From: Burkholderiales bacterium
GTDB lineage: Bacteria > Pseudomonadota > Gammaproteobacteria > Burkholderiales > Burkholderiaceae_C
Length of the DNA: 64,000 nt
Assembly (NCBI GenBank): GCA_038208175.1
Contig: JBBQZA010000001.1
Location: forward strand, 4,984 to 68,983
Direction: 5' to 3'
In this document: positions 45,920 through 61,674 of the stretch, piece after piece
How the letters are laid out: each line of letters starts with the position of its first letter
How positions within the stretch are numbered: position 1 is the stretch's first letter
Notes under the pieces: model-generated
Seen by the model: the letters and a program-made list of their open reading frames with translations, nothing else
Told to the model about the DNA's origin: nothing
Databases searched by the model: none
Made by a program: the position numbers and the translations under genes

Positions 45920-47425
45920 ATGCAAAACCTTCCACTGATTCAGCACTTGATTGACGGCCAGCTGGTGGCCGGCGGCAGCCGCTCGCAAGAAGTCTTCAAC
46001 CCGGCCCTCGGCAAGGCAGAAAAGCGTGTCCTGCTGGCCGACAAGACCACGGTAGAACAGGCCATTGCCTCGGCCCAAAGCGCTTACCCGGCCTGGCGTG
46101 CCACACCACCGCTGAAACGCGCGCGCGTCATGAGCAAGCTCAAAGAGTTGCTGGAAGCGAATGCCGATCAGATCTGTGCCCTGGTCACGGCCGAACACGG
46201 CAAAGTGCTAAGCGATTCTCTGGGTGAACTGCAGCGCGGCATCGAGAACGTCGAATACGCCAGCTACGCGCCGGAGCTGCTCAAGGGTGAACACAGCAAA
46301 AACGTCGGCCCCTCGATGGACTCCTGGAGCGAGTTTCAGGCGCTCGGTGTCACGGCCGGCATCACGCCGTTCAACTTCCCGGTCATGGTGCCCTTGTGGA
46401 TGTGGCCGATGGCGGTCGCCTGTGGCAATACCTTTGTGCTCAAACCCTCCGAGCGCGACCCCAGCAGTGCGCTGCTGGTCGCGCAACTGGCATTGCAAGC
46501 CGGCCTGCCGCCCGGTGTTCTGAATGTGGTGCACGGTGACAAGGAAGCGGTCGACACCCTGCTCGGCGACAAGCGCGTGCAGGCCATCAGCTTTGTCGGC
46601 TCGACGCCAATTGCCGAATACATTTATGCCACCGGCTGTGCCAATGGCAAACGGGTGCAGGCGCTCGGCGGCGCCAAGAACCACGCGGTGGTGATGCCTG
46701 ACGCCGATGTACCCAATGCGGTGAGCGCCTTGATGGGTGCCGCCTATGGCTCTTGCGGTGAACGCTGCATGGCGATTCCACTGGTCGTAGCGGTTGGCGA
46801 TGCCACCGCCGACGCCGTCGTGGCTGGCCTGAAGGTTGAAATTTCAAAAATGAAGGTTGGCCCTGGCACCGACGCCGCCAACGACATGGGCCCGTTGGTC
46901 ACGAAAGCTCATTTTGAGAAAGTCAAAGGCTATGTGGATCAAGGCGTGCTGGAAGGCGCCACACTGGTGGTGGATGGCCGCGGCGTCAAGGTAAGCGGCC
47001 ACGAAGACGGCTACTTTCTGGGCGCCTGCCTGTTTGACAACGTTAAACCCGGCATGAAGATCTATCAGGAAGAAATCTTCGGTCCAGTGCTGGGCGTGAT
47101 GCGGGTCAAGACGCTGCAGGAAGCAATGGACCTGATCGATGCGCATGAATACGGCAACGGCACCTGCATCTTCACGCGCGATGGCGAAGCCGCCCGCTAC
47201 TTCAGCGACAACATCCTGGTCGGCATGGTTGGCGTCAACGTGCCGCTACCGGTGCCGGTGGCCTATCATTCTTTTGGCGGCTGGAAACGCTCGCTGTTTG
47301 GCGACCTGCACGGCTACGGTCCGGATGCGGTACGGTTCTACACCAAACGCAAGACCATCACCCAGCGCTGGCCGTCAGCCGGGGTGCGCGAGGGAGCAGT
47401 GTTCAGCTTTCCGACCAACCGGTAA
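45920..47425 (+). CDS. mmsA: CoA-acylating methylmalonate/malonate-semialdehyde dehydrogenase
   Basis: ITPFNFP.MVP.WM, LKPSERDP, GGAKNH, GERCMA, SFGGWKRSLFGD. Confidence 0.95.
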   Translation: MQNLPLIQHLIDGQLVAGGSRSQEVFNPALGKAEKRVLLADKTTVEQAIASAQSAYPAWRATPPLKRARVMSKLKELLEANADQICALVTAEHGKVLSDSLGELQRGIENVEYASYAPELLKGEHSKNVGPSMDSWSEFQALGVTAGITPFNFPVMVPLWMWPMAVACGNTFVLKPSERDPSSALLVAQLALQAGLPPGVLNVVHGDKEAVDTLLGDKRVQAISFVGSTPIAEYIYATGCANGKRVQALGGAKNHAVVMPDADVPNAVSALMGAAYGSCGERCMAIPLVVAVGDATADAVVAGLKVEISKMKVGPGTDAANDMGPLVTKAHFEKVKGYVDQGVLEGATLVVDGRGVKVSGHEDGYFLGACLFDNVKPGMKIYQEEIFGPVLGVMRVKTLQEAMDLIDAHEYGNGTCIFTRDGEAARYFSDNILVGMVGVNVPLPVPVAYHSFGGWKRSLFGDLHGYGPDAVRFYTKRKTITQRWPSAGVREGAVFSFPTNR

Positions 47426-47545
47426 TTGAAAACGAAGATCGGTTGTCACAGGTTCATGTTCAAGGCAAAAATTCGGCCTTAAGACGATGGCGTTTGGGTG
47501 GCAGGCCTTTGCACTTTTCGACACAGAAACCAAGCCGTTCAAGTC

Positions 47546-47737
47546 GTTCAGACCCAGGCCAAAACCGATTTCCAGAACCGTGAAACGGCTTTGCCCACGC
47601 CAACGCTCAGGCAACCCGCAGCCCTGGAGGAACACCGTGACAGCCTGCGCCAAACCCCCCGAGCGTGAGCGGTACCTGTCGTTGAAGCGAGGACTGTGCG
47701 GATCGCCATCGTCCGTCCATAAAACTGGCTCGTTCAA
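47546..47737 (-). pseudogene. mnmC: N-terminal 64 codons of tRNA mnm5s2U methyltransferase (MnmC/MnmD)
   Basis: W.DDG.P.S.RF.D.Y.S..GGL.QA..VFL.GCGLP.RW....FTVLEIGFGLGLN, then similarity ends. Confidence 0.8.
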
Positions 47738-47910
47738 AGCGTTGCACCTCCATCTTCAAAGTATGAACGACCCTGTAACGATGAAGCGACTGGGGCCAGT
47801 TCTTGTATTAGCGAAACAAATGAGCTCTCATTAATATTAATTGAAGTTTTCAAATAAGTCCTCCTGCGAGACACTGCGCCCATTCACACCCAACAAACCT
47901 GGAGACCAGC

Positions 47911-49026
47911 ATGCTGATCGGATTACCCAAAGACATCAAGAACCACGAATATCGCGTGGGTCTGACCCCGGCCAGCGTGCGCGAGCTGGCAGCGCACGGA
48001 CATCAGGTTCTGGTGCAGGCTGGCGCCGGCGCTGCCATTGGCCTGACCGATGAACAGTACCAGGCGGCTGGTGCAACGCTCTCGCTGGACGCCAAGGACA
48101 TTTTCGCCAAGGCCGAGATGATCGTCAAAGTCAAGGAACCTCAGCCGCAAGAATGCGCCATGCTACGCCCAGGACAGATTCTTTACACCTACCTCCATTT
48201 GGCGCCCGACCCACAGCAAACTGCCGCACTCATCAAGTCAGGCGCTATCTGCATTGCCTATGAAACCATCACTGGACCCGGCGGCGGATTGCCCCTGCTG
48301 GCACCGATGAGCGAAGTGGCTGGCCGCATGGCGGTGCAGGCCGGCGCGGCACATCTGGAAAAATCCAAAGGCGGAATGGGCGTGCTGCTGGGTGGCGTGC
48401 CTGGCGTTCCGGCCGCCCACGTCGCCATCATCGGTGCTGGCGTGGTTGGAACCCACGCACTGCAAATGGCCGTGGGCATGGGCGCGCGCGTCAGCGTTCT
48501 GGACAAGAACGTGGATCGCCTGCGCCAGCTCGATCTGGTCTTCGGTAACCGCATCAACACCATCTACTCGAACGCGCAAAGCGTGGAAGATGCCGTACTC
48601 GACGCCGATCTGGTCATCGGGGGTGTCTTGATTCCTGGCGCCGCAGCGCCCAAACTGGTAAGTCGCAGCATGATCTCGCGAATGAAGAAGGGCGCCGTAA
48701 TTGTTGACGTGGCGATAGACCAGGGTGGTTGCTTTGAAACCTCGCATGCAACCACACACGCCGAGCCGACTTACTTGGTGGACGAAGTCGTGCACTACTG
48801 CGTTGCCAATATGCCGGGTGCCGTGGCGCGCACCTCGACCTTCGCGCTGAACAACGCGACCATTGGACATGCTGTGGCACTGGCCGAGAAAGGCTGGAAG
48901 CAGGCCCTGATGGACAATCCGCACCTGAAGAACGGCCTGAACGTCGCCAACGGTCACGTGACCTACGAAGCCGTGGCGCAGGACCTGGGCTACGCTTATG
49001 TGAGCGCCGACAGTTTGCTGGGGTGA
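47911..49026 (+). CDS. ald: Alanine dehydrogenase
   Basis: EYRVGLTP, KVKEP, LLAPMSEVAGR, GAGVVG, DVAIDQGG, ANMPGAV. Confidence 0.96.
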   Translation: MLIGLPKDIKNHEYRVGLTPASVRELAAHGHQVLVQAGAGAAIGLTDEQYQAAGATLSLDAKDIFAKAEMIVKVKEPQPQECAMLRPGQILYTYLHLAPDPQQTAALIKSGAICIAYETITGPGGGLPLLAPMSEVAGRMAVQAGAAHLEKSKGGMGVLLGGVPGVPAAHVAIIGAGVVGTHALQMAVGMGARVSVLDKNVDRLRQLDLVFGNRINTIYSNAQSVEDAVLDADLVIGGVLIPGAAAPKLVSRSMISRMKKGAVIVDVAIDQGGCFETSHATTHAEPTYLVDEVVHYCVANMPGAVARTSTFALNNATIGHAVALAEKGWKQALMDNPHLKNGLNVANGHVTYEAVAQDLGYAYVSADSLLG

Positions 49027-49067
49027 GTAGATGCCGTGGGCGACTTGGGGCCGCCTACAATTTGCCG

Positions 49068-49586
49068 ATGTCTTTGTCCCTTTCACGCCGCAAGGCCCAG
49101 GCTCCGAATTTTTCGCAAACCGAATTTCGAACTGCATTGGGCATGTTTGCCACTGGCGTAACGATTGTGACGGCCCGCACGACCGAAGGCAAGCTGGTCG
49201 GTCTGACTGCCAACTCATTCAACTCTGTGTCACTTGATCCGCCGTTGGTACTGTGGAGCCTGGCCCGGGCGGCCGCCTCCATGCTGGCATTCAGCACCGG
49301 ATCGCACTATGCCATCAACATCCTGACGGCTGGCCAGCAGGCGCTGGCGAAGCGCTTTGCCGCCAAGGGTGTGGACCGGTTCGCGGACGTTGCATTTGGC
49401 GATGGCGTCGGCGGTGCCCCTTTGCTGGTCGGAGCGGCCGCCTCGTTTGAGTGCTTCAACCGTAGCCGCTATGAAGAAGGTGACCACGTTATTTTCGTTG
49501 GCGAAGTGGAGCGCTGTTCGTACCGGGCCGGCGCCTCACCCCTGCTCTTTCACGGTGGCAAGTTTTACGCCGAACATGCTTTGTAA
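49068..49586 (+). CDS. Flavin reductase family protein
   Basis: FRTALG.FATGVTIVT, TANSFNSVSLDPPL, GDHVIFVGEV. Confidence 0.9.
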   Translation: MSLSLSRRKAQAPNFSQTEFRTALGMFATGVTIVTARTTEGKLVGLTANSFNSVSLDPPLVLWSLARAAASMLAFSTGSHYAINILTAGQQALAKRFAAKGVDRFADVAFGDGVGGAPLLVGAAASFECFNRSRYEEGDHVIFVGEVERCSYRAGASPLLFHGGKFYAEHAL

Positions 49587-50489
49587 GTGATGATCGAACG
49601 CAAAGACCACCTGGACACCCTCGCGGTTTTCCTGCTGCTGGGTTGTAGCCTGTTCTGGGGCTTCCAGCAGGTGCTGGTCAAGGCCACAATTCCAGATGTG
49701 CCACCGATCTTTCAGGCCTCACTGCGCTTCGCCGGTGCGACGGTTCTCTTGTGGCTGTGGTGTGCGTGGCGCCGAATCCCGTTATTCCAGCGCGACGCAA
49801 GCCTGCTGGCCGGCCTGCTGGCCGGCATTTTGTTTGCGCTTGAATTTGCCTGTCTTTACGCCGGACTGCAGTTTTCAGCGGCGTCGCGTCTAACCATTTT
49901 TCTCTACACCTCCCCGTTCTGGGTAGCTGCATTGCTCCCTCTGTTTGTACCTGCGGAGAAGATGCGCCCACTGCAATGGCTGGGTCTGGCACTGGCGTTT
50001 ACGGCAGTGGCCTTTGCACTGCGTGAAGGCCTCACTTCGACCAGCAGCGCTGAGCAGTGGCGCGGCGACTTGTTGGCGCTGACAGCCGGCATGTTTTGGG
50101 GCCTGACCACGGTGGTCATTCGCAGCACTCGCCTGACCCGGGTATCGCCTGAGAAACTGCTGTTCTACCAAGTCGGTGTGAGTGCCGTGACATTGCCGCT
50201 GCTGTCATTGCTGCTGGGCGAGCGCTGGGTCTGGACCTATAGCGCATTCGCTGTGACGTCGCTATTGCTGCAAACAGTGGTGGGCGCCTTTGTCAGCTAT
50301 CTGGCCTGGATGTGGATGCTCGGACGCTACCCCGCCACCAAAATTTCCGTCTTTGTTTTTCTGACGCCGGTTTTTGCATTGCTGTTTGGCTCACTCTGGT
50401 TGCATGAGCCCGTCACACTCAACCTGATCGCTGCCCTGTCCCTGGTGGCTGTCGGCATTGTGCTGGTGAACCGCAGGCCCGAGTCATAG
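49587..50489 (+). CDS. DMT/EamA family transporter
   Basis: Ten hydrophobic segments; FWGFQQV, FLTPVF. Confidence 0.88.
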   Translation: MMIERKDHLDTLAVFLLLGCSLFWGFQQVLVKATIPDVPPIFQASLRFAGATVLLWLWCAWRRIPLFQRDASLLAGLLAGILFALEFACLYAGLQFSAASRLTIFLYTSPFWVAALLPLFVPAEKMRPLQWLGLALAFTAVAFALREGLTSTSSAEQWRGDLLALTAGMFWGLTTVVIRSTRLTRVSPEKLLFYQVGVSAVTLPLLSLLLGERWVWTYSAFAVTSLLLQTVVGAFVSYLAWMWMLGRYPATKISVFVFLTPVFALLFGSLWLHEPVTLNLIAALSLVAVGIVLVNRRPES

Positions 50490-50502: not shown

Positions 50503-51753
50503 TTAGACCACCCGGGAAGAACGCAAAGCGGCCATCGCCGCAGCGTCCACTCCCAATTCCGCCAGCACTTCATCGGTGTGTTCGCCCAGCGCTGGAGGTG
50601 CCCGTCGCAGCACAGGCGGGGTCGCCATCAGGCGTAACGGACTGGCGACAGTGGCGATGGATTCGACCGCTGTCCTGGCATTAGCCGTTGGCGACCGGGG
50701 CTGCTTCACCACCAAACCACGGGCTGCGACCTGGGCATCAGCAAAAGCCTGCCCAATATCGTTGATCGGACCACAGGGGACGGCCTGGTCTTCCAGCAGT
50801 GCAATCCACTGCGCCGTGCTGCGGCTACGGGTCACTTCCTGCATCGCAGAAATCAGTGCTTCACGGTGTTTCACGCGCAGTGTGTTGTTGGCAAAACGGG
50901 GGTCGGAGGCCCACTCCGGATGCGCAGCGACCTCACAAAAGCGGGCGAACTGGCCGTCATTGCCGATCGCCAGCAGCATGGATCCGTCCAGCGTCTGGAA
51001 GTCCTGGTAAGGAGCGAGGCTGGGGTGGCTGTTGCCCTGACGCTGCGGCACCTTGCCGGTATTCAAGAAGCCGGCTGCCTGATTGCCCAAAATGGCCATC
51101 CCCACATCCAGCAATGCCATATCGATGTACTGACCCTCACCGCTGCGGTGCCGCACTTCCATGGCCGCCAAAATGGCGCTACAAGCATAGACACCGGTGA
51201 AAATATCGGTCAGTGCAACGCCAACGCGCTGCGGTCCGCCACCCGTCACGTCATCTGAGCGGCCTGTGATGCTCATCATGCCGCTCATGGCCTGAATCAT
51301 CAGGTCGTAGCCAGCACGCTCGGCATACGGACCGTCCTGACCAAAACCCGTGACAGAGCAATAAATCAGGCGCGGATTCAGGATCTTCAAGCTGGCGTAG
51401 TCCAGCCCGTATTGCTGCAAACCACCGACCTTGAAATTTTCCACCAGGATGTCACTCTTCAAGGCCATCTGGCGAATCAAAGCCTGCCCTTCGGGCTTGG
51501 CCATGTCGATGGTTATGGAGCGCTTGTTGCGGTTGCAGGCTGTGAAATAGCTGGCCTGATCGGTATCGCTGCCCGCTGCATCCTTCAGGAATGGCGGCCC
51601 CCAGTGGCGTGTATCGTCGCCGACGTCAGGGCGCTCAACCTTGATCACATCAGCTCCCAGGTCAGCCAACATTTGGGTGCACCAGGGGCCGGCCAGTACG
51701 CGGGACAGGTCGAGTACTTTGATATGCGAGAGGGCGGCTTGTTTATTGGTCAT
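50503..51753 (-). CDS. CaiB/BaiF family III CoA-transferase (probable glutarate CoA-transferase)
   Basis: DLSRVLAGPW, GDDTRHWGPP, NRNKRS, AGYD; downstream of gcdH. Confidence 0.9.
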   Translation of the reverse strand: MTNKQAALSHIKVLDLSRVLAGPWCTQMLADLGADVIKVERPDVGDDTRHWGPPFLKDAAGSDTDQASYFTACNRNKRSITIDMAKPEGQALIRQMALKSDILVENFKVGGLQQYGLDYASLKILNPRLIYCSVTGFGQDGPYAERAGYDLMIQAMSGMMSITGRSDDVTGGGPQRVGVALTDIFTGVYACSAILAAMEVRHRSGEGQYIDMALLDVGMAILGNQAAGFLNTGKVPQRQGNSHPSLAPYQDFQTLDGSMLLAIGNDGQFARFCEVAAHPEWASDPRFANNTLRVKHREALISAMQEVTRSRSTAQWIALLEDQAVPCGPINDIGQAFADAQVAARGLVVKQPRSPTANARTAVESIATVASPLRLMATPPVLRRAPPALGEHTDEVLAELGVDAAAMAALRSSRVV

Positions 51754-51815
51754 CGTGAGTTCTCTCTTTTCTCTCGTTAGCTCTGTTTACTCGCCACAGG
51801 GTGTCCGGCCAGGTG

Positions 51816-51933
51816 GGAGCATTCCGGCGGTGGCCCGGAGCACGCCGGTGGGGCACTCAGTTCCGCGAATGTCCCCCGCCTACGGCTCCTCCTTTATTTC
51901 GCTGCACTGAGCGCCCCATCGGCGTGCTCCTGC
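51816..51933. repeat. ~118-bp hairpin repeat element, copy 2 (inverted relative to copy 1)
   Basis: Matches the reverse complement of 24655-24772 with a few substitutions. Confidence 0.85.
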
Positions 51934-52052
51934 ATTTGTGGTGAGCGATTGCGCCCCAACGCCGCCGTTTGCCACTACCGGCATACCAGTTCTTGTCTTT
52001 CGAAAACCACAGGGTATCAGACATCGGCAAGTCAACAAATAATTTGCAACCG

Positions 52053-53249
52053 TCAATTCGCAAAAGCCGCAATCCCGGTCTGCGCCCGGCCCAGAATCAG
52101 CGCATGGATGTCGTGCGTACCTTCATAGGTATTCACCGCTTCCAGGTTCACCAAATGGCGCGCCACGCCAAACTCATCCGAGATACCGTTGCCACCCATC
52201 ATGTCGCGTGCCAGACGTGCCACGTCGAGCGCTTTGCCGCAGGAATTGCGCTTCAGGATCGATGTGACTTCAACCGAGGCAGTGCCCTCGTCCTTCATCC
52301 GGCCCAGTCGCAGACAACCCTGCAGGCCGAGTGCAATTTCGGTCTGCATGTCGGCCAGTTTTTTCTGAATCAATTGATTGGCCGCCAGCGGGCGGCCAAA
52401 TTGTTTGCGCTCCAGCACATACTGGCGCGAGCGAAACCAGCAATCTTCAGCCGCACCCAAAGCACCCCAGGCAATACCGTAGCGCGCCGAGTTGAGGCAG
52501 CTAAAAGGCCCCTTTAATCCATGCACTTCGGGAAAGGCATTCTCTTGCGGGCAGAACACAGCGTCCATCACGATTTCGCCGGTGATCGAGGCGCGTAAAC
52601 CGACCTTGCCATGAATCGTTGGCGCACTCAAACCCTTGGCCCCTTTGTCCAGTACGAAGCCACGAATCGGGCCTACATGACCACTTTCGCTGACTTCTTT
52701 GGCCCAGACCACAAACACATCCGCAACGGGGGAGTTGGAAATCCACATTTTGTTGCCGGTCAGCTTGTAGCCGCCGGCAGTTTTGTGGGCGCGGGCAGCC
52801 ATGGAACCCGGGTCGGAACCATGATCCGGTTCGGTCAGGCCAAAGCAGCCTATCCATTCACCGGTGGCCAATTTCGGCAGGTATTTTTGCTTTTGCGCCT
52901 CACTACCAAATTCAAAAATGGGCACCATCACGAGTGAACTTTGCACACTCAACATGGAGCGGTAACCGGAATCGACGCGCTCGACTTCACGCGCGATCAG
53001 GCCGTACGCCACATAGTTGAGGCCGGGGCCGCCATAGGCGTCGGGAATGGTCGGACCCAGCAAACCGAGTTCCCCCATTTCACGAAAGATGGAAATATCG
53101 GTCTGTTCCTTGCGGAAGGCCTCAATCACACGCGGCTGGAGCTGGTCCTGGCAATAGGCAGCAGCCGCGTCGCGCACCATGCGCTCCTCATCGCTGAGCT
53201 GGCTGTCGAGCAAAAAAGGGTCTTGCCAGTTAAAGGCAGCGTTGGGCAT
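52053..53249 (-). CDS. gcdH: Glutaryl-CoA dehydrogenase (decarboxylating)
   Basis: [58 protein letters not shown]; start at ATG 53249. Confidence 0.95.
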
Positions 53250-53522
53250 AAGTGTTCTCCGGTTAAGCAATTGACAACAAATCCAGTGCTGCAACTGCAT
53301 TGAGTGGCGCATGGTAGCGGACCGAAGGGCAAAAAAGCAAACGACTTCTATTCACCTAGTTATGCAAATTATTCATATTTAGTCTAAAAATGTTATGACC
53401 TAATCATCTCCTGGCGCGGTCCAACAACGCACTTTTTACCCTTTGCGTTGTCGACAGTCTGAGCATTTCAGTAAAGTGTCAAATCCAGGTGTTCGAAAGA
53501 TATTGTGTATATTTCGCATATC

Positions 53523-54449
53523 ATGCGCAGAAAAATCCCGTCGCTACAAGCCCTCGCCTGTTTTCAGACGGCTGCCTGCCATGAAAGCTACACACGCGCC
53601 GCGCAAGAACTGGCACTGACGCAGGGCGCGGTGTCGCGGCAGATCAGCGCGCTGGAAGAATTCCTCGGTGTTGTCCTATTTCAACGCACCCGCCACGGCG
53701 TCAAGTTGACCGAGCGTGGCGCGGACTACGCAGCCCAGGTGGCGCCCCATTTACAGAACCTGGAACAGGACACGCTGGACGTCATGTCAACGCAGGGTCG
53801 CGGCGGCAGCATCCGGCTGGCGGCGGTACCGACGTTCGCGACACGTTGGCTGATACCGCGTCTCCCGGATCTGAAAGCGCAGCACCCTGAAATCACGGTT
53901 CACATCGAGACGCGCACCCGTCCCTTCATGTTTGCCGATACATCATTTGATGCGGCGCTCTATGCCGGTAGCGCGGAACAGGTCAACGCCTGGGCTGGCA
54001 CGCAGTCGGTGCGGCTGCTGGCAGAAGACATGGTACCGGTTTGCGCCCCGGTCCTGATCGGCGCACAAACCAGATTGACGGCCGAGACCATCGCGCAACT
54101 CCCCTTGCTGCAACAAAGCACCCGGCCCATGGCCTGGCGTCAATGGTTTGAGGCGGCCGGTGTCAGCGCACCGCTGGCTATGGCCGGGCCGCGCTATGAG
54201 TTGTTTTCGATGACCACTGCTGCAGCTACCCAAGGTTTGGGGCTGGCGCTGGTGCCGCGCCTTCTCATTGAATCGGAACTATTGCGTGGCGAGTTGGTCA
54301 TTGCCTGCCAACAACCCCTTAAAGGCGAGCGCGCCTTTTACCTGGTTAACCCAGAGCGCGCCGACGAGAGACCGGCCTTGAAGATCTTTCGGACCTGGTT
54401 GCTGCAAGCTGCAGCGCAGGGTCCGCCGTCCACTTTGGCGCTGTCTTGA
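53523..54449 (+). CDS. LysR family regulator (GcdR/GcvA type)
   Basis: MRRKIPSLQAL..F..AA.HES.TRAA.EL.LTQ.AV; divergent from gcdH. Confidence 0.88.
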   Translation: MRRKIPSLQALACFQTAACHESYTRAAQELALTQGAVSRQISALEEFLGVVLFQRTRHGVKLTERGADYAAQVAPHLQNLEQDTLDVMSTQGRGGSIRLAAVPTFATRWLIPRLPDLKAQHPEITVHIETRTRPFMFADTSFDAALYAGSAEQVNAWAGTQSVRLLAEDMVPVCAPVLIGAQTRLTAETIAQLPLLQQSTRPMAWRQWFEAAGVSAPLAMAGPRYELFSMTTAAATQGLGLALVPRLLIESELLRGELVIACQQPLKGERAFYLVNPERADERPALKIFRTWLLQAAAQGPPSTLALS

Positions 54450-54534
54450 TCTGCGAGAGTAAATCTGATCATTTGGCGCGCAGCCTAAAATCCCCTGAGT
54501 ATTGTGATCAACATAGACCAAAGCGGGGTAAGCA

Positions 54535-55695
54535 ATGAATTTCGAATTGACCGAAGAACAGCAACTGATCCAGGACACGGCCCGGCGCTTCGCTGCGGAG
54601 GACATAGCGCCGACACTCGAAGCCGAGGAAAGCAGGCACGAGTTTCGTGCCGATCGGGTCGCAAAAATGGGCGGCTTGGGATTTTTTTCCTGCGCCCTGC
54701 CCGAGGAGTTCGGTGGCAGCGGCATGGGTTTCTTCGAGTCGGTCCTGATGGCCGAACAGATCGCCAAAATCTCCGCCTCCTGGCGCTTGCCATTCAACAT
54801 GCAGAACCTGGGACCGGCGCTGACCGTGAACAAGTTCGGCTCGCAGGCGCAGAAGGAAAAGTATGTCCCCGGCTGGGTCGCCGGCACCCAATTGGGATTC
54901 TTCGCCATGACCGAATCCAACACCGGCTCGGATGTTTCCAGCATGAAGACCCACGCTATCGACAAGGGCGATCACTGGGAGATACACGGCTCCAAGATAT
55001 GGATTTCGCAGGCGCAGGTTGGCGATGCCGGCCTGCTCTATGCCTATACCGACAGGACCCAGGGTAACAAGGGTATCACTGCCTTCATCATCGAACCGAA
55101 GAACATGCCGGGCTGCAGCGCCCGCGCCATCGAAACCAAGCTCGGCCTGAAATGCGCACCGACCGGCGAGTTCGCCTTCGATGGCATGAAGGTGCCAAAA
55201 GAAAATGTGTTGGGCAAGCCCGGCGAGGGGTTTCGCATCTGCATGTGGCAACTCAATCAAACCCGGCTCGGTTGCGCGGCGGGCGCGCTGGGCGTGGCCG
55301 GCGGTGCGCTGGATCTGGCCGTTGGGTATGCCAACGAGCGCAACCAGTTCGGCAAGCCGATCTCGCAGCATCAGATGGTCCAGGCGCAGATTGCCGAGAT
55401 GGTGGTCGAACACCAGGCGGCGCAAATGCTGGTCTATCGGGCAGCCTGGCTGAAAGACCAGGGCAAGCCGAACCAATTTGAGACCTCGGTCGCCAAGTAT
55501 GCCGCGTCCGAGGCAGCGGTTCACGCCGCCAACGAGTGCATGAAGATTTATGGCTCGTACGGGTTTTCCACCGAGTATCCGGCCGAGCGTTTCTACCGCG
55601 ACGCCAAGTCGCTGCAGGTGGTGGAAGGCACGTCCAACATCCAGAAAGTCATCATCTCGGGCATGGCGCTGGGCTTCACGCCGAACCGCGAGTAG
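54535..55695 (+). CDS. Acyl-CoA dehydrogenase, probably non-decarboxylating glutaryl-CoA dehydrogenase
   Basis: YAYTD..G.KG.TAF.IEPKN.PG, GSYGFSTEYPAERFYRDA, VEGTSNIQKVII resemble the Desulfococcus multivorans enzyme; adjacent to gcdA. Confidence 0.75.
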   Translation: MNFELTEEQQLIQDTARRFAAEDIAPTLEAEESRHEFRADRVAKMGGLGFFSCALPEEFGGSGMGFFESVLMAEQIAKISASWRLPFNMQNLGPALTVNKFGSQAQKEKYVPGWVAGTQLGFFAMTESNTGSDVSSMKTHAIDKGDHWEIHGSKIWISQAQVGDAGLLYAYTDRTQGNKGITAFIIEPKNMPGCSARAIETKLGLKCAPTGEFAFDGMKVPKENVLGKPGEGFRICMWQLNQTRLGCAAGALGVAGGALDLAVGYANERNQFGKPISQHQMVQAQIAEMVVEHQAAQMLVYRAAWLKDQGKPNQFETSVAKYAASEAAVHAANECMKIYGSYGFSTEYPAERFYRDAKSLQVVEGTSNIQKVIISGMALGFTPNRE

Positions 55696-55720
55696 TAGGC
55701 GACAACAGAGGAAGATAGAC

Positions 55721-57454
55721 ATGAGACCGTATTTTGAAAAAATGCCCGGCCTGGGCAAACCCCTCAGGGAAAATCGCATCCTGCGTTCGAAGGAAAGCCG
55801 CGCCAAACTGGAAGCCACCGAGGCAGAAATTGCGGCACTTCGCAAGATCCGGGAAAACGTCGGAATTTCCACTGAGAAAATTAATGAACGTGGCTCGCTG
55901 ACGGTCTGGCAACGACTCGAATATCTGGTCGACCCAGGTACCTGGCAGCCGCTACACAGCCTCTACAACCCAGAGGAAAATGAAGAAGGTACGACCAACG
56001 TGGTCGACGGGTTGGGAAAAATATCCGGCCGCTGGGCGGTCATCATCGGCTTCGACAACAAAGTGCTGGCAGGCGCCTGGATTGCCGGGCAACCGGAAAA
56101 TATCCTGCGCGTCACCAATCTGGCAAAGCGGCTGAATATTCCCTTGGTATGGCTGGTCAACTGCAGCGGCGTGAAACTGCCCGATCAGGAGAAGTTCTAC
56201 GCCGACCGCCGCGGTTCCGGCACCCCTTTTTACCGTCACGCCGAACTGGAACAAGCCGGCATTCCCGTGCTGGCAGGGATTTATGGCACCAATCCTGCCG
56301 GCGGTGGCTATCAGGGCATTACGCCAACCATTCTGATTGCGCACAAGGACGCGAATATTGCCGTCGGCGGCGCCGGCATCGTCTCGGGCATGTCGCCGCG
56401 CGGCGGATTTGATGTGGAAGGGCTGGAACAACTGATAGCGGTCACGCGCGATCTCAAGGAACGCCCACCGGGCCGGGTCGAAACGCATTACAACGAGACC
56501 GGCTTTTTCACTCACGTCTGCGACGAGGAAAAAGGCGTTCTGGATGGCATCAAGACTTACATGCGGGCGATCCCGGCCTACGATCCAATGTTCTTCCGGG
56601 TCGCCGAACCGGCTGAGCCGCTGCTCCCGGCGGATGATCTGTATCATCTGCTGCCTTTTAACCAGAAGGAAACCTACGTTCTTGAAGAAATCATCGCACG
56701 GGTCGTGGACGGCAGCGAGCACATGGAATTTCGCCCGAACTACGGGCCGGAAATCTATGCCGGGCTGGTGAAAATTGATGGCATGCTGATCGGGGTGATC
56801 GGCAACCGCCAGGGCTTGTTGCCTCCGGGTTATCCGGAATATGCGGACTATCCGGGCATCGGCGGCAAGTTATACCGGCAGGGCTTGATCAAGATGAGTG
56901 AATTCGTGACCCACTGCGGACGCGATCGTGTGCCGGTGATCTGGCTCCAGGACACCAGCGGCATCGATGTTGGTGACGCGGCGGAAAAAGCCGAGCTGCT
57001 AGGCCTGGGCTCGAGTCTGGTTTACTCGATCCAGCAGGTCGATGTGCCGATGATGCTGGTGGTGCTCAGGAAAGGCAGCGCGGCGGCGCACTACATCATG
57101 GGCGGACCAAATGCCAATCGTCAGAACGCCTTTACCTTGGGCACCGCCGCAACCGAAATCTACGTGATGCATGGCGAGACCGCCGCCGTGGCGACCTACG
57201 CGCGCCGGGCGGTGAAGGACAAGGATGCGGGCAAGCCGCTGGAGCCGATCGCCGAGAAGATGAACGAGATGGCGCAGAAGTATCACGACACCTCGCGCCC
57301 GGCCTACTGCGCGCGCCACGGCTTCGTCGATGAGATCGTTGATCTGAAAGCGTTACGCGCTTATTTCAAGGCCTTTGCCGGCAGCGTTTACCAGAATCCG
57401 AAATCGATCTGCCCGCGCCACCAGATGCTGCTGCCCAGGATCATCAAAGGCTAA
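55721..57454 (+). CDS. gcdA: Glutaconyl-CoA decarboxylase alpha subunit (carboxyltransferase)
   Basis: NCSGVKLPDQEKFYADRRGSGTPFYRHAEL, GIYGTNPAGGGY, AVGGAGIVSGMSP match Acidaminococcus-type GcdA; start at ATG 55721. Confidence 0.88.
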   Translation: MRPYFEKMPGLGKPLRENRILRSKESRAKLEATEAEIAALRKIRENVGISTEKINERGSLTVWQRLEYLVDPGTWQPLHSLYNPEENEEGTTNVVDGLGKISGRWAVIIGFDNKVLAGAWIAGQPENILRVTNLAKRLNIPLVWLVNCSGVKLPDQEKFYADRRGSGTPFYRHAELEQAGIPVLAGIYGTNPAGGGYQGITPTILIAHKDANIAVGGAGIVSGMSPRGGFDVEGLEQLIAVTRDLKERPPGRVETHYNETGFFTHVCDEEKGVLDGIKTYMRAIPAYDPMFFRVAEPAEPLLPADDLYHLLPFNQKETYVLEEIIARVVDGSEHMEFRPNYGPEIYAGLVKIDGMLIGVIGNRQGLLPPGYPEYADYPGIGGKLYRQGLIKMSEFVTHCGRDRVPVIWLQDTSGIDVGDAAEKAELLGLGSSLVYSIQQVDVPMMLVVLRKGSAAAHYIMGGPNANRQNAFTLGTAATEIYVMHGETAAVATYARRAVKDKDAGKPLEPIAEKMNEMAQKYHDTSRPAYCARHGFVDEIVDLKALRAYFKAFAGSVYQNPKSICPRHQMLLPRIIKG

Positions 57455-57469
57455 AGAACCACCAATTTT

Positions 57470-57538
57470 GTCATCCCCGCGAAAGCGGGGATTCAGGCAG
57501 CCGTGAAAGTCATGGATTCCCGCTTGCGCGGGAATGAC
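57470..57538. repeat. REP-type palindrome (GTCATCCCCGCGAAAGCGGGGATTCAG...CATGGATTCCCGCTTGCGCGGGAATGAC)
   Basis: Two inverted GTCATYCCCGCG-type units between convergent gcdA and gcdB. Confidence 0.8.
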
Positions 57539-57554
57539 GCGGTAGACAGGCAGC

Positions 57555-58760
57555 TCAGCGTAACAGCGTGACGTAAACAGCGGCGATGATGGCCGAGGTG
57601 ATCACGCCGCAGATATTTGCCCCCAATGCCCACGGCAGGATGATCGCGAACTTGTTGGCGTCACGCGCCTCCTTCTGCGCCACCTTGGCTGTCGTCGGAA
57701 TGCAGGAAACTCCGGCGATGCCGATGACCGGGTTAAAGGTCCGGCCGCTGGTCCAATAGACGATGTAGCCGCCGATGATCCCGCCAATGCCGGAGATCAG
57801 GAGCGCCGTCACGCCCAGGAACAGCAGCAGAATGACCTTGGGATTGAGGATCGTCGCGGCTTCGCAGAGCACGCCCAGCAGGAGCCCGAGAAAAAAGGTG
57901 GAGCCGTACAGGACCGGACCGCCGATGAATTCAACAAATGGTTTGACATCCGACTCACGGATGATGATGCCCAGAAAGAACGACATGAACAGCGGCGCCG
58001 CCACCGGCAAAAGCAGGCACAGCAGCGTGCAGCTAATCACGGCGAAAGTCATTTTTTCCGCTTTAGTGAAACTCGGAATTTGCTTCGGGTCCATCTTGAT
58101 CCCTCTCAGATGCTTGGGGATCATGAGCCGGATCAGGTAAGGATAGCCGGCATAGGTCAGGCTCAGATAGAGGTAAGCCACGATCGTTATAGGCACGAAG
58201 ATGTCCTTGGCCAGGATCAACGACGTGTACAACACCATCGGACCATCGGCGCCGCCCACCATGGCGATCGACGCCGCCTCTTTGTAGGTAAGTCCCATGG
58301 CGACCGCGATCGGAAAGGTCAACAGGGTGCCGAGTTCGGCGCACAGAGCAATGAACATGCTGCGCATCGGCGATATGAGCATGTAGCCGATATCCGTGAT
58401 AACGCCAATGCCCATGAAGATGAGGCAGGCGATCAATCCGTTGCTGAAAGTGAAGGTGTAGATGGGCTGCAGGAAATTGATCTGCAAGACGTTCATGAGC
58501 TGGTTCGGCTCACTCGCCATGGGGTCCAGAAAAATCGTTCCCATCGTCGTTTTCGAGAGGTAGAGAACGGCCGCATTGACCGAAGACATGCCGACTCCCA
58601 TGGGAATCATGATCAGCGGCTCGAGCGTCCCCTTGGCGCCCAGGTAAACAAAGGCGATGCCCAGCAAGATCAGCACGATCCTCGCCACGACGATGATCGG
58701 ATCGGAGGCGACCATGGTGGCGATGCCCTGGAATATATACAGGAGGTCTATTTCGGGCAT
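57555..58760 (-). CDS. gcdB: Na+-translocating decarboxylase beta subunit (GcdB/OadB family)
   Basis: EPL.MIP.G.G, GGADGP, GVSCIPTTAKV, GANICGVI; very hydrophobic. Confidence 0.88.
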   Translation of the reverse strand: MPEIDLLYIFQGIATMVASDPIIVVARIVLILLGIAFVYLGAKGTLEPLIMIPMGVGMSSVNAAVLYLSKTTMGTIFLDPMASEPNQLMNVLQINFLQPIYTFTFSNGLIACLIFMGIGVITDIGYMLISPMRSMFIALCAELGTLLTFPIAVAMGLTYKEAASIAMVGGADGPMVLYTSLILAKDIFVPITIVAYLYLSLTYAGYPYLIRLMIPKHLRGIKMDPKQIPSFTKAEKMTFAVISCTLLCLLLPVAAPLFMSFFLGIIIRESDVKPFVEFIGGPVLYGSTFFLGLLLGVLCEAATILNPKVILLLFLGVTALLISGIGGIIGGYIVYWTSGRTFNPVIGIAGVSCIPTTAKVAQKEARDANKFAIILPWALGANICGVITSAIIAAVYVTLLR

Positions 58761-58762
58761 GA

Positions 58763-58963
58763 TCAGACCGCCTTTGTGGGGCCGCTACCGGCAGGCTTGG
58801 AGGACAGGTTGACCGTTGCGTCGATTTTCGCCATGGCCAAAACTCTTTGCCTGCGGATGCCGACGAATATCAGTTTGATGACAACTGCCACCAGCATTGA
58901 TATCAATGCGGCCAACCCGTAGACCACCAGCATGATCTTGACCGAACCCCAAAAATATTCCAT
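58763..58963 (-). CDS. Small membrane anchor subunit (GcdD/OadG-like)
   Basis: 66 aa, single N-terminal TM helix, between the biotin carrier and beta subunit genes. Confidence 0.6.
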   Translation of the reverse strand: MEYFWGSVKIMLVVYGLAALISMLVAVVIKLIFVGIRRQRVLAMAKIDATVNLSSKPAGSGPTKAV

Positions 58964-58981
58964 AAGCGAAGCAGGATTTGT

Positions 58982-59197
58982 CTATTCGATGACCAGCAAC
59001 AACTGATTGGACTCAACCATCGCCCCCTGGGAAACCTTGATCTCGGTGATCTTGCCGTCGGCCGGGGCGAAAATCGGATTTTCCATTTTCAGGGCTTCCA
59101 GCATCATCAGCTCGTCTTCATAACTCACCTGGTCGCCAACTTTGCAGAAAAGTCCCACGATTTTTCCCGACATCGGGGCGTTCACCTCAACGGCCAT
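58982..59197 (-). CDS. Biotin carrier subunit (GcdC-like)
   Basis: APMSGKI, LEALKMENPI (biotinyl-lysine motif), 71 aa. Confidence 0.88.
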   Translation of the reverse strand: MAVEVNAPMSGKIVGLFCKVGDQVSYEDELMMLEALKMENPIFAPADGKITEIKVSQGAMVESNQLLLVIE

Positions 59198-59364
59198 CTC
59201 ATTTCTCCTTTTATCAGTCAGTTTCGGACGCCGAATTCAGCAACCCCGAGCGTCGATTCTATTCGGCTTTACTCTCAAGCTAGTGTGAGCGTCTACAATT
59301 TCACCCCTACACAAACGCTGTCGGGTCGATATTTAGACCACACCGATTACAGCAGGAGACCAGC

Positions 59365-61674
59365 ATGCCCCAGACACCCTTCACCGCCGATGAAAAGCGT
59401 GCCATCCTGCGCCGCGCTGCTCTCGAGTACCACGAGTTCCCAACCCCCGGAAAAATCCGCATTGCCGTTACCAAACAGTTGGTCAACCAGCACGACCTTG
59501 GACTGGCTTATTCACCCGGCGTGGCAGCGCCCTGTGAAGAAATCGTCAAAGACCCCAACAACGCGTTCAAATACACCAGTCGCGGCAACCTGGTAGCTGT
59601 GATCACCAACGGCACGGCGGTGCTGGGCTTGGGCGATATTGGTCCCCTGGCAGCAAAGCCGGTTATGGAAGGCAAAGGCGTGCTGTTCAAGAAGTTTGCC
59701 GGTATTGATGTGTTTGACATTGAGATCAACGAAAAACATGACCTCGACAAACTGGTTGACATCATCGCATCGCTGGAGCCCACTTTTGGTGCCATCAACC
59801 TGGAAGACATCAAGGCGCCAGACTGCTTCTACGTCGAGCGTGAGTTGCGCAAACGCATGAAGATACCGGTATTCCACGACGATCAGCATGGCACGGCCAT
59901 CACGGTCGGCGCGGCCATCCTCAATGCCTTGAAAGTAGCCGGCAAGGACCCGAAAAAGATCAAACTCGTTACCTCGGGTGCCGGGGCGGCAGCGCTGGCC
60001 TGTCTGGGGCTGCTGGTCAAGCTCGGCATCCCGCGAGAGAACATTTTTGTGACGGACCTGGCTGGCGTGGTCTACGAAGGGCGCACCGAACTGATGGATG
60101 AAGACAAAATTGTTTTCGCTCAAAGAACATCAGCCCGAACTTTGGGCGAAGTGATTGAAGACGCTGACGTTTTTCTGGGTTTGTCTGCCGGCGGGGTATT
60201 GAAGCCAGCCATGGTCAAAAAAATGGCTGCCAACCCGATTGTGTTTGCCTTGGCCAATCCGACCCCGGAAATCCTGCCGGAGGAAGTGAGAGCAGTTCGC
60301 GACGACGCCATTATGGCCACCGGTCGCTCAGACTACCCGAATCAGGTTAACAACGTTCTGTGTTTCCCCTACATATTTCGCGGTGCGCTGGACGCAGGAG
60401 CCTCCACCATCACGATCGAGATGGAGATCGCGGCCGTTCACGCCATTGCTGAATTGGCGCAAGCCGAGCAAAGTGAGGTCGTAGCGGCGGCCTACGCCGG
60501 TGAGAAATTGGCTTTCGGACCGCAATACCTGATTCCCAAACCCTTTGATCCGCGCCTGATGATGAAAATCGCGCCGGCGGTGGCGCAGGCAGCCGCTGAC
60601 AGCGGTGTTGCTCTGCGACCCATCAAGGACATGGAAGCCTACCGGCAGAAGCTGCAAAGCTTTGTTTACGCTTCTGGCACCGTCATGAAGCCGATCTTCA
60701 CGGCCGCCAAGGTCGGGCTCAAAAAACGTGTCGCGTATGCCGAGGGTGAAGAAGAACGCGTCTTGCGCGCGGCCCAGATCGTGGTTGATGAGGGACTGGC
60801 ATTGCCAACCCTGATTGGTCGACCGCTGGTCATTACCGAGCGGATTGAAAAATTTGGTCTGCGTCTGCGCCAGGATGACGATTACAACGTGGTTAATGTC
60901 GAGCAGGACCACCGCTACCGGGATTTCTGGCAAACCTATCACCGCATGACCGAACGCAAGGGCATGACAGCGCAGGTGGCCAAGATCGAAATGCGCCGTC
61001 GCCTGACGCTGATTGGCGCCATGCTGCTGCACAAGGGCGATGTGGACGGAATGATTTGCGGTACCTGGGGCAGCACTTCCATGCACTTGCAGTACCTGGA
61101 TCAGGTGATTGGCAAGCGTGCCGGCGTCAACACTTACGCCTGCATGAATTGCGTGATGCTGCCGGAGCGTCAACTTTTTATTGTCGACACGCACGTCAAT
61201 TACGACCCCAGCGCCGAACAATTGGCTGAGATCACGACCCTGGCCGCCGAAGAAATGATGCGCTTTGGCATTCGACCGAAAGCGGCCCTGCTGTCCCACT
61301 CCAATTTTGGTAGCAGCAGCCAGCCCAGCGCACTCAAGATGCGCCAGGCCCTTGAACTGCTGCGAATGCAAACGCCTTGGCTGGAAGTGGACGGCGAAAT
61401 GCATGGCGACGTTGCGCTGGACGGTGCTGCGCGCGCCGCCCTGATGCCCAACAGCACCTTGACCGGCGACGCCAATCTGCTGGTGCTGCCCAATATCGAT
61501 GCTGCCAATATTGCCTACAACCTGCTCAAGACCGCTGCCGGCGGCAATATTGCCATCGGCCCTGTGCTGCTTGGGGCAGCGAAACCGGTGCACATTCTGA
61601 CGGCCAGCGCCACAGTACGCCGGATCGTCAACATGACAGCCCTGACTGTCGCTGATGCAAACGCTACCCGTTAA
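59365..61674 (+). CDS. maeB: NADP-dependent malic enzyme with PTA domain
   Basis: [42 protein letters not shown]. Confidence 0.97.

Follow-up and report, generated by a model that had tools for sequence, protein, structure and literature searches.

Described bacteria fall into two groups by how they turn glutaryl-CoA into crotonyl-CoA. Facultative anaerobes use a decarboxylating glutaryl-CoA dehydrogenase (GDH), whereas obligate anaerobes combine a non-decarboxylating GDH with a glutaconyl-CoA decarboxylase (Gcd) (PMC5852087). By the second route roughly −30 kJ/mol is conserved in the decarboxylation of glutaconyl-CoA, and in Firmicutes the biotin carrier of the enzyme, GcdC, is a protein of 14–15 kDa with an N-terminal anchor, an Ala/Pro linker and a biotin domain (PMC7145394). 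The genes of the first route have been described in Pseudomonas putida, in the layout gcdR-gcdH-gcoT, with the LysR-type regulator gene divergent from gcdH and the CoA-transferase gene (PMC6667623). Here we describe a locus in which the genes for both routes stand side by side. It occupies positions 50503–59197 of a stretch of 64,000 nucleotides from an uncultured Burkholderiales bacterium of freshwater sediment (the window), and its ends coincide with the outer gene ends of a set of eight genes. Three of these genes form a native gcdH unit. The other five lie in an inserted block of about 4.9 kb (54450–59280) and encode a second dehydrogenase, Acd, and what appear to be the subunits of a Na+-pumping Gcd. 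We consider it probable that the locus provides two parallel routes from glutaryl-CoA to crotonyl-CoA, of which the inserted one would conserve energy through Na+ export.

Our reading starts with the two dehydrogenases. GcdH (52053–53249, minus strand) matches the Burkholderia pseudomallei enzyme (3D6B/3EOM/3GNC) at 735 bits and human GCDH at 544 bits, and its catalytic motif NTYEGT is of the Tyr-Glu type found in decarboxylating GDHs. In these enzymes the Tyr of the YEG motif forms a hydrogen bond to an Arg and touches the carboxylate group that is lost as CO2 (PMC3169403). Acd (54535–55695, plus strand) has as its closest solved relative the non-decarboxylating GDH of Desulfococcus multivorans (GDHDes, 3MPI; 375.6 bits, 48.5% identity), followed at 311.4 bits by a butyryl-CoA dehydrogenase-type protein in the PDB. 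Its top NCBIfam model is NF045552 GlutCoADH_Des (442.1 bits), with the next family at 361 bits. The stretch SLQVVEGT of Acd aligns with TYYMVEGS of 3MPI, its Val-Glu being Val366-Glu367 of GDHDes, and the Arg in SASWRLPFN aligns with the carboxylate-binding Arg87 of 3MPI (Arg94 in human GCDH). The Val that replaces Tyr beside the catalytic Glu is reportedly, after work by Wischgoll et al. in 2010, the key determinant that prevents decarboxylation. The same Val-Glu pair is present in all 50 proteobacterial and all 10 Desulfobacterales dehydrogenases that adjoin gcdA in the loci we fetched. Acd is predicted from these residues to be a GDH that stops at glutaconyl-CoA. An earlier note on this DNA had proposed that two dehydrogenase types share the locus, and this proposal is supported: one enzyme has Tyr-Glu and the other Val-Glu together with the Arg, and the gene for the latter is followed, after 25 nt, by a genuine gcdA.

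The remaining four genes of the block correspond to the parts of a Gcd. GcdA (55721–57454, plus strand, 577 aa) matches the carboxyltransferase (alpha) subunits of Clostridium symbiosum (3GF3, 736.5 bits) and Acidaminococcus fermentans (1PIX, 723.7 bits) from end to end (2–575 of 578), and no other carboxyltransferase exceeds 146 bits. It is 57.4% identical to the C. symbiosum protein, and an exact-sequence look-up of the window's GcdA in public assemblies returned no record. GcdB (57555–58760, minus strand, 401 aa) belongs to PF03977 (359.7 bits), the membrane-bound carboxybiotin decarboxylase and Na+ channel (beta) subunits; the generic model of Na+-pump beta subunits, TIGR01109, gives 193.8 bits, barely above its cut-off of 190.6. 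Upstream of gcdB are a gene for a 66-aa membrane protein (58763–58963, minus strand) with a single hydrophobic segment (residues 3–39), presumed to be a GcdD/OadG-like anchor, and a gene for a GcdC-like biotin carrier of 71 aa (58982–59197, minus strand). The carrier matches PF00364 at 63.7 bits, several BCCP and MmdC models match as well, and its biotinyl-lysine lies in the motif EALKMEN. Homologues of the 66-aa protein (40–68% identity) are encoded directly upstream of MadB-like gcdB genes in 12 other loci.

All eight genes are intact, with no internal stop in any of their frames. The gene list of the earlier note thus stands, coordinates included, except for the orientation of the beta, delta and carrier genes, which are present as described but are on the minus strand, convergent with gcdA. 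Spacing is tight throughout. On the plus strand 85 nt separate lysR from acd and 25 nt acd from gcdA; on the minus strand 18 nt separate the carrier gene from the 66-aa gene, and the stop of the latter is 2 nt from the start of gcdB.

From these genes the following scheme can be proposed. Glutaryl-CoA would be formed from glutarate by the CoA-transferase, from lysine or from benzoyl-CoA. In the native route GcdH would dehydrogenate and decarboxylate it in a single active site, and because both reactions share that site the energy of decarboxylation would be lost. In the inserted route Acd would oxidise glutaryl-CoA to glutaconyl-CoA. GcdA would then move the carboxyl group of glutaconyl-CoA to the biotin of the free 71-aa carrier, setting crotonyl-CoA free, and the beta subunit with its 66-aa partner would decarboxylate the carboxybiotin and export Na+. 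Both dehydrogenases presumably feed electrons to electron-transferring flavoprotein (ETF).

When such a second route would be of use can be judged from the rest of the genome. The contig of the window, at 75.6 kb, is the largest of the 430 in a metagenome-assembled genome (MAG) that is 91.6% complete with 4.4% contamination. This MAG has four genes of the heme-copper oxidase family. On another of its contigs (C13, L089; 3068–13656) it has a complete class I benzoyl-CoA reductase cluster of the Thauera type, with bcrD, bcrA, bcrB, bcrC, dch, oah and had followed by korAB, and all genes of the cluster score above their NCBIfam cut-offs. Given both oxidases and a class I benzoyl-CoA reductase in the host, an extra route would raise the energy yield when energy is scarce, for example under anoxia. 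Most plausibly, then, the inserted route would boost the yield of glutaryl-CoA oxidation, be it from benzoate, lysine or glutarate, under such conditions.

That the block is an insertion can be seen in two genomes of the same genus, G212 (L084) and G154 (L085). Both share the flanks of the window, in the order rsmA, two small open reading frames, maeB, lysR, gcdH, CoA-transferase, EamA transporter, flavin reductase and alanine dehydrogenase. In both, maeB follows lysR after about 75 bp. In the window the conserved leader of maeB (AGCGTCTACAATTT...) resumes at about 59283, and maeB, which encodes an NADP-malic enzyme, is the next gene beyond the carrier. Since lysR adjoins maeB in these relatives, with no block between them, the segment from acd to the carrier gene is a clean insertion of about 4.9 kb. 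An inverted match of 12/15 between 54454–54468 and 59262–59276 (9-bp core GAGAGTAAA) was considered as a terminal repeat and rejected, being at chance level for such spacers.

The block is rare in its lineage. GcdA occurs in 2 of 41 genomes of the genus, in 1 of 151 of the family (the window's own) and in 3 of 401 of the order. A scan of species-representative genomes found more than 570 GcdA relatives, the best 80 of which were used for a maximum-likelihood tree. In this tree a clade of 43 Alpha- and Betaproteobacteria sequences has full support and is nested within sequences of Gammaproteobacteria, then Myxococcota, then Desulfobacterales. The Desulfobacterales proteins, 70–74% identical to the window's, stand outside the proteobacterial clade as outgroups. 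Within the clade, GcdA of the window belongs to a group of nine (support 100) whose named members are MAGs of Sterolibacterium and Sulfuritalea (Sterolibacteriaceae), at 90–93% identity. The Sterolibacteriaceae sequences beside which it is placed are 92–93% identical, and its two closest relatives among them are L002 and L004. GcdA of G182, the other carrier of the module in the genus, is 85–86% identical and groups with Ramlibacter and other Comamonadaceae. Judged by this tree, horizontal transfer from a Sterolibacteriaceae-like lineage brought the block into this genome. The earlier note had pictured the module as acquired and parked behind gcdR; the direct lysR-maeB junction in G212 and G154, the rarity of GcdA and the position of the protein in a Sterolibacteriaceae clade all agree with that picture. 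Composition lends weak support to a foreign origin. In tetranucleotide composition acd-gcdA correlates with the genome at 0.85, within the genome's range, and the segment of gcdB, the small gene and the carrier gene (GC content 0.557) at 0.68, which is below the 5th percentile of genome chunks. The atypical composition of the membrane genes may also be mere membrane-protein codon content.

The module is not unique to this organism. An acd-gcdA pair is present in at least 43 loci of Alpha- and Betaproteobacteria, including one in the isolate Ramlibacter lithotrophicus. Among the relatives, the closest (L002, L004 and L040) have the genes for carrier, small protein, beta subunit, Acd and GcdA collinear on one strand. 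In a Sulfuritalea MAG (L004, 1–11523) the five genes directly follow gcdH and are flanked by had (546 bits), oah and a benzoate-CoA ligase gene (758 bits), and L002 has the same flanks. In this lineage the module belongs to the anaerobic benzoyl-CoA pathway, a source of glutaryl-CoA. The oah frame of L004 seems to be split, with only the C-terminal 140 residues matching in the frame 1784–2860, possibly through a long-read indel. Seven further betaproteobacterial loci, and G182, have a gcdH of the same type as the window's within the flanks that we fetched. Hence, the dual arrangement is recurrent and no accident.

The place between gcdR and maeB has also received a different version of the module. 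In G182 (L087, G182:C240 2362–6855) and in a Comamonadaceae MAG (L011, 2420–7000) carrier, acd and gcdA genes converge, in the same slot, on genes for an OadB-like beta subunit and a 50-aa gamma subunit. This beta subunit has 382 aa and is 30% identical to the window's GcdB. With a different module at the same place, either the slot has been filled twice or an older module has been replaced. One could go further and regard the slot as a recurrent landing site for at least two non-orthologous modules, one Sterolibacteriaceae/MadB-like and one Comamonadaceae/OadB-like. They would come under the control of glutarate and GcdR, and a respiring cell with a class I benzoyl-CoA reductase would switch, depending on conditions, between the energy-wasting and the Na+-pumping route. 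Part of the same idea is a minimal pump, in which a free 8-kDa carrier with no linker would shuttle between soluble GcdA and a MadB-type beta subunit held by the 66-aa anchor. We offer this extended idea tentatively and think it has a minor chance of being right as a whole.

Several findings weigh against two parallel routes with a Na+ pump among them, and we give them here together with the explanations that they favour. Some concern the host. The contig with the benzoyl-CoA reductase cluster is tied to the window by MAG binning only, in a MAG with the contamination given above. BcrB is found in 5 of the 41 genomes of the genus, one of them a 4-contig assembly, and G182 has no BcrB. A strict co-occurrence of Gcd with benzoyl-CoA reductase is therefore rejected, and a connection with the breakdown of aromatics, though plausible, is not a necessary one. 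The adjacent CoA-transferase/gcdR unit suggests glutarate or lysine just as much as the source of glutaryl-CoA (PMC6667623).

Other findings concern the pump itself. It could be that the module acts on glutaryl-CoA and glutaconyl-CoA and builds no Na+ gradient, with GcdA and the free carrier carrying out the decarboxylation in solution or the MadB-like beta subunit moving H+ or nothing. The module would then be a redundant or kinetically different bypass of GcdH. Such an arrangement has been proposed for Geobacter bemidjiensis, where acd-gcdA comes with no beta, gamma or delta subunit (PMC2996986). In the Salmonella beta subunit (StOadB, 6IVA) Asp203, Ser382 and Asn412 form the Na+ site, and Arg304 and Asn311, on the cytoplasmic face, are essential (PMC7274780). 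In GcdB the latter two are replaced by Pro274 and Gly281, although the alignment of this loop is uncertain and the protein belongs to the MadB-like subgroup. GcdB may be mechanistically divergent, as a member of a distinct beta subgroup that may be shared with malonate decarboxylase. The StOadB residue Arg389 is replaced by Lys in GcdB. The carrier consists of the biotinyl domain alone (about 70 aa), lacking the N-terminal anchor and the Ala/Pro linker of GcdC that could dock it on a complex, and an in-frame stop upstream makes a longer reading frame impossible. Its biotinyl-lysine stands in LKM instead of the canonical MKM. The 66-aa protein matches no model of Pfam or NCBIfam and lacks an Ala/Pro region. 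Because no family model matches, the name delta, which the earlier note had given to this gene, follows from position, size and the single helix; the one-helix gene is indeed there, and its family is the part of that claim that did not find support.

The GcdB residues at the ion site point the other way. Asp203, Ser382 and Asn412 of StOadB are kept (as D172, S352 and N382), as are Glu40, Tyr229, Asn373, Gly377 and Ser419 (E47, Y198, N343, G347 and S389). The genes for the beta subunit and the small protein are intact, tightly spaced and co-inherited with acd-gcdA in many loci, and the retention of an intact 401-aa membrane protein argues for its use. We therefore regard a module that does not pump Na+ as unlikely, and favour two routes of which one exports Na+.

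It is about as improbable, in our view, that Acd and GcdA work on another substrate, such as a dicarboxylyl-CoA or branched enoyl-CoA, or that the complex runs in reverse as a Na+-driven crotonyl-CoA carboxylase, as in Syntrophus on crotonate. Acd is 28 bits short of the equivalog cut-off of NF045552 (442 vs 470), and about half of its residues differ from GDHDes. Gcd is reversible in Syntrophus aciditrophicus, which both oxidises and synthesises benzoate (PMC7145394). The beta subunit, finally, is nearest to the malonate decarboxylase subtype: GcdB scores highest with the MadB model TIGR03136, at 538 bits, below the cut-off of 596.9. Against these points, GcdA resembles two GcdAs that are defined biochemically over its whole length and is remote from all other carboxyltransferases. 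In Acd, the Arg and the Val-Glu that define the GDHs forming glutaconyl-CoA are both retained. The module recurs beside gcdH/gcdR in L003, L004, L005, L009, L010, L011, L016 and G182, and within clusters for benzoyl-CoA degradation in L002 and L004, and no other mad (malonate decarboxylase) genes are found near gcdB. All this fits glutaryl-CoA as the substrate and glutaconyl-CoA as the predicted product.

The block could also be a recent neutral or decaying acquisition that is silent, so that GcdH does all the work. It is rare in genus and family, and the composition of its membrane genes is atypical. For the possible switching of routes with redox or energy state that the earlier note had put forward, the search for regulatory sites gave little. 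No FNR-type box (TTGAT-N4-ATCAA, up to 2 mismatches) is present in the promoter regions of acd or the carrier gene, and the FNR-type matches within the block all lie inside coding sequence. The spacers between gcdH and lysR and between lysR and acd contain no palindromic T-N11-A GcdR operator (at least 9/13 self-complementary). The best ungapped matches that these two spacers and the one between the carrier gene and maeB have with one another are 11–12/15, the chance level. Scans for promoters and terminators stayed near shuffle expectation, with no convincing promoter before acd or the carrier operon. Among sequencing runs, those that contain the window's module are DNA runs only; no RNA run matched.

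For modules of the Ramlibacter type there are such matches. Contigs of soil (X7 and X8) and sludge (X9) metatranscriptomes match the R. lithotrophicus module (L009, 6493–9096) over the carrier/acd junction, acd and gcdA with 0–3 mismatches; lysR and most of gcdB are uncovered. This suggests that modules of the Ramlibacter type are transcribed in nature, an indirect kind of support because carry-over of DNA is possible. The five frames of the window's block are intact and closely spaced, its proteins are 89–95% identical to those of relatives with no frameshift, and in G182, another species of the genus, a different version of the module stands intact in this slot. We think a silent block quite improbable, and a block that is put to use as an energy-conserving second route the better explanation.

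That the juxtaposition is an artefact of assembly or binning, with DNA of an anaerobe fused to a betaproteobacterial contig, would be conceivable in a MAG of 430 contigs with some estimated contamination, but has next to no chance of being right given that both flanks are syntenic with same-genus genomes, that independent contigs cross both junctions and that the gene order recurs elsewhere. The source run, a freshwater sediment metagenome, holds 97% of the query's words, and its Logan contigs match the window with 100% identity at 52960–54293, 54321–57435, 57406–58769 and 58790–59495. The second of these leads from lysR into acd and the last from the carrier gene into maeB, at an even depth of 6.5–11. 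With both junctions spanned by independent contigs at even depth there is no mis-join in the MAG, and the contaminant join, which the earlier note had named as a possible refutation, is rejected. The order gcdH, lysR, (carrier) acd, gcdA, beta subunit and maeB is also that of G182 and of L011 and, apart from maeB, that of the isolate R. lithotrophicus RBP-1 (L009).

The native unit is of a known kind. The family III CoA-transferase (50503–51753, minus strand), encoded downstream of gcdH in the same orientation, belongs to PF02515 (421 bits), and its top NCBIfam model is NF052585, succinate--glutarate CoA-transferase (498.7 bits, below the cut-off of 750). It is likely, from its sequence, a succinyl-CoA:glutarate CoA-transferase (GcoT or Gct), and it adjoins gcdH in the same-genus genomes too, at 73–86% identity. 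For gcdH we read the likely start as the ATG at 53249, which is preceded by the ribosome-binding site GGAGAA; the open frame itself reaches 53312. The gene is a core gene of the genus (34 of 41 genomes, 87–92% identity). The LysR-type regulator (53505–54449, plus strand; PF00126 and PF03466) belongs by score to the GcvA-like subfamily (266.5 bits, below the cut-off of 288), and its likeness to gcdR is one of position; within the genus the regulator is kept at 69–76% identity. A regulator gene divergent from gcdH and the CoA-transferase gene marks a glutarate utilisation unit; the window has this layout, and it is conserved in the genus. A glutarate/glutaryl-CoA cluster which we take to be of the same kind exists in Azoarcus sp. 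CIB.

Between the convergent stops of gcdA and gcdB lies an imperfect palindrome (57465–57545; 81 nt, a double hairpin, GTCATCCCCGCGAAAGCGGGGAT...ATTCCCGCTTGCGCGGGAATGAC). Its minimum free energy is −46.9 kcal/mol (z = −3.5), and none of 200 shuffled sequences was as stable. It is likely a bidirectional terminator or a REP-like element. Partial copies elsewhere in the MAG number two (on C238 and C205), too few to support membership in a REP family. Upstream of the locus, at 45920–50489, are genes for a methylmalonate-semialdehyde dehydrogenase (641 bits), an alanine dehydrogenase (534 bits), a flavin reductase and an EamA-type transporter. Their order is kept in same-genus genomes, and they appear unrelated to the inserted module.

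Why does this matter? Reviews and annotations use the glutaryl-CoA step as a marker of lifestyle, with GcdH taken to indicate a facultative anaerobe or aerobe and GDH plus Gcd an obligate anaerobe (PMC5852087). The locus described here and the related loci in Alpha- and Betaproteobacteria, at least 43 in number, show that the energy-conserving module is mobile: a respiring bacterium with a GcdH of its own can gain it as well, in some cases within a benzoyl-CoA cluster. Provided that the module works, lifestyle could not be read reliably from this marker in metagenomes, and facultative degraders would win back some of the ATP that class I benzoyl-CoA reduction consumes. The cultured carrier R. 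lithotrophicus RBP-1 would then be a tractable system for learning when each of the two routes is used.

How does the locus compare with known systems? The native unit corresponds to gcdR-gcdH-gcoT of P. putida KT2440, with its LysR gene divergent from the gcdH-CoA-transferase operon, as a unit that is core to the genus of the window. It differs from that of P. putida in that a second glutaryl-CoA route has been inserted directly downstream of the regulator gene.

With the GcdABCD complexes of A. fermentans and C. symbiosum the inserted module shares a GcdA that is 57% identical over its full length, and the same set of parts: a carboxyltransferase, a membrane-bound beta subunit, a biotin carrier and, presumably, a small one-helix subunit (PMC7145394). 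The parts themselves differ. The carrier has 71 aa and LKM, as against 14–15 kDa, an anchor with a linker and MKM. The small subunit, at 66 aa, has neither an Ala/Pro region nor a family match. The beta subunit of 401 aa is MadB-like, whereas the GcdB type of these bacteria has 35–39 kDa. The substrate would come from a dehydrogenase in the window and not, as in those two species, from a 2-hydroxyglutaryl-CoA dehydratase. In its beta subunit the module resembles the Na+-translocating malonate decarboxylase of Malonomonas rubra, GcdB scoring 538 bits on the MadB model TIGR03136 vs 194 on the generic beta model. It differs from that system in staying below the equivalog cut-off and in having no other mad genes around it, and in L002, L004 and L040 its MadB-like gcdB has been inherited together with acd-gcdA as part of one operon.

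The earlier note knew of no characterised example in this group, and our searches of the open-access literature agree: no paper was found there that links Gcd to Betaproteobacteria, Sulfuritalea, Sterolibacterium, Ramlibacter, Rhodoferax or Georgfuchsia. The nearest precedent in the literature searched is acd-gcdA of G. bemidjiensis, an Fe(III)-reducing benzoate degrader in which a predicted non-decarboxylating GDH is encoded beside gcdA (Gbem_1452/1453; PMC2996986). It has neither the other three subunits nor a decarboxylating gcdH, whereas the window has what appears to be the full set and gcdH as well.

Closest in logic are the non-decarboxylating GDH (GDHDes, 3MPI/3MPJ) and the Na+-pumping Gcd of D. 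multivorans and S. aciditrophicus, which share with the window the division of the reaction into two steps and, in gene order, an acd that adjoins gcdA. Acd keeps the Val-Glu and the equivalent of Arg87 at close to half identity with GDHDes. The modules of L002 and L004 stand in benzoyl-CoA clusters, a likeness to the lower benzoyl-CoA pathway of the two anaerobes. The differences lie in the host and in the history of the module. D. multivorans and S. aciditrophicus are obligate anaerobes, whereas the host of the window is a Comamonadaceae-like betaproteobacterium that respires and has both heme-copper oxidases and a class I benzoyl-CoA reductase of the ATP-dependent kind. The module of the window is inserted beside a decarboxylating gcdH/gcdR unit, and it was acquired horizontally and is rare in its lineage. 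All parts of the locus come from known families. Its unusual features are the host in which it is found, the presence of gcdH and gcdR alongside the module, the module's mobility and the pairing of a MadB-type beta subunit with so compact a carrier and anchor.

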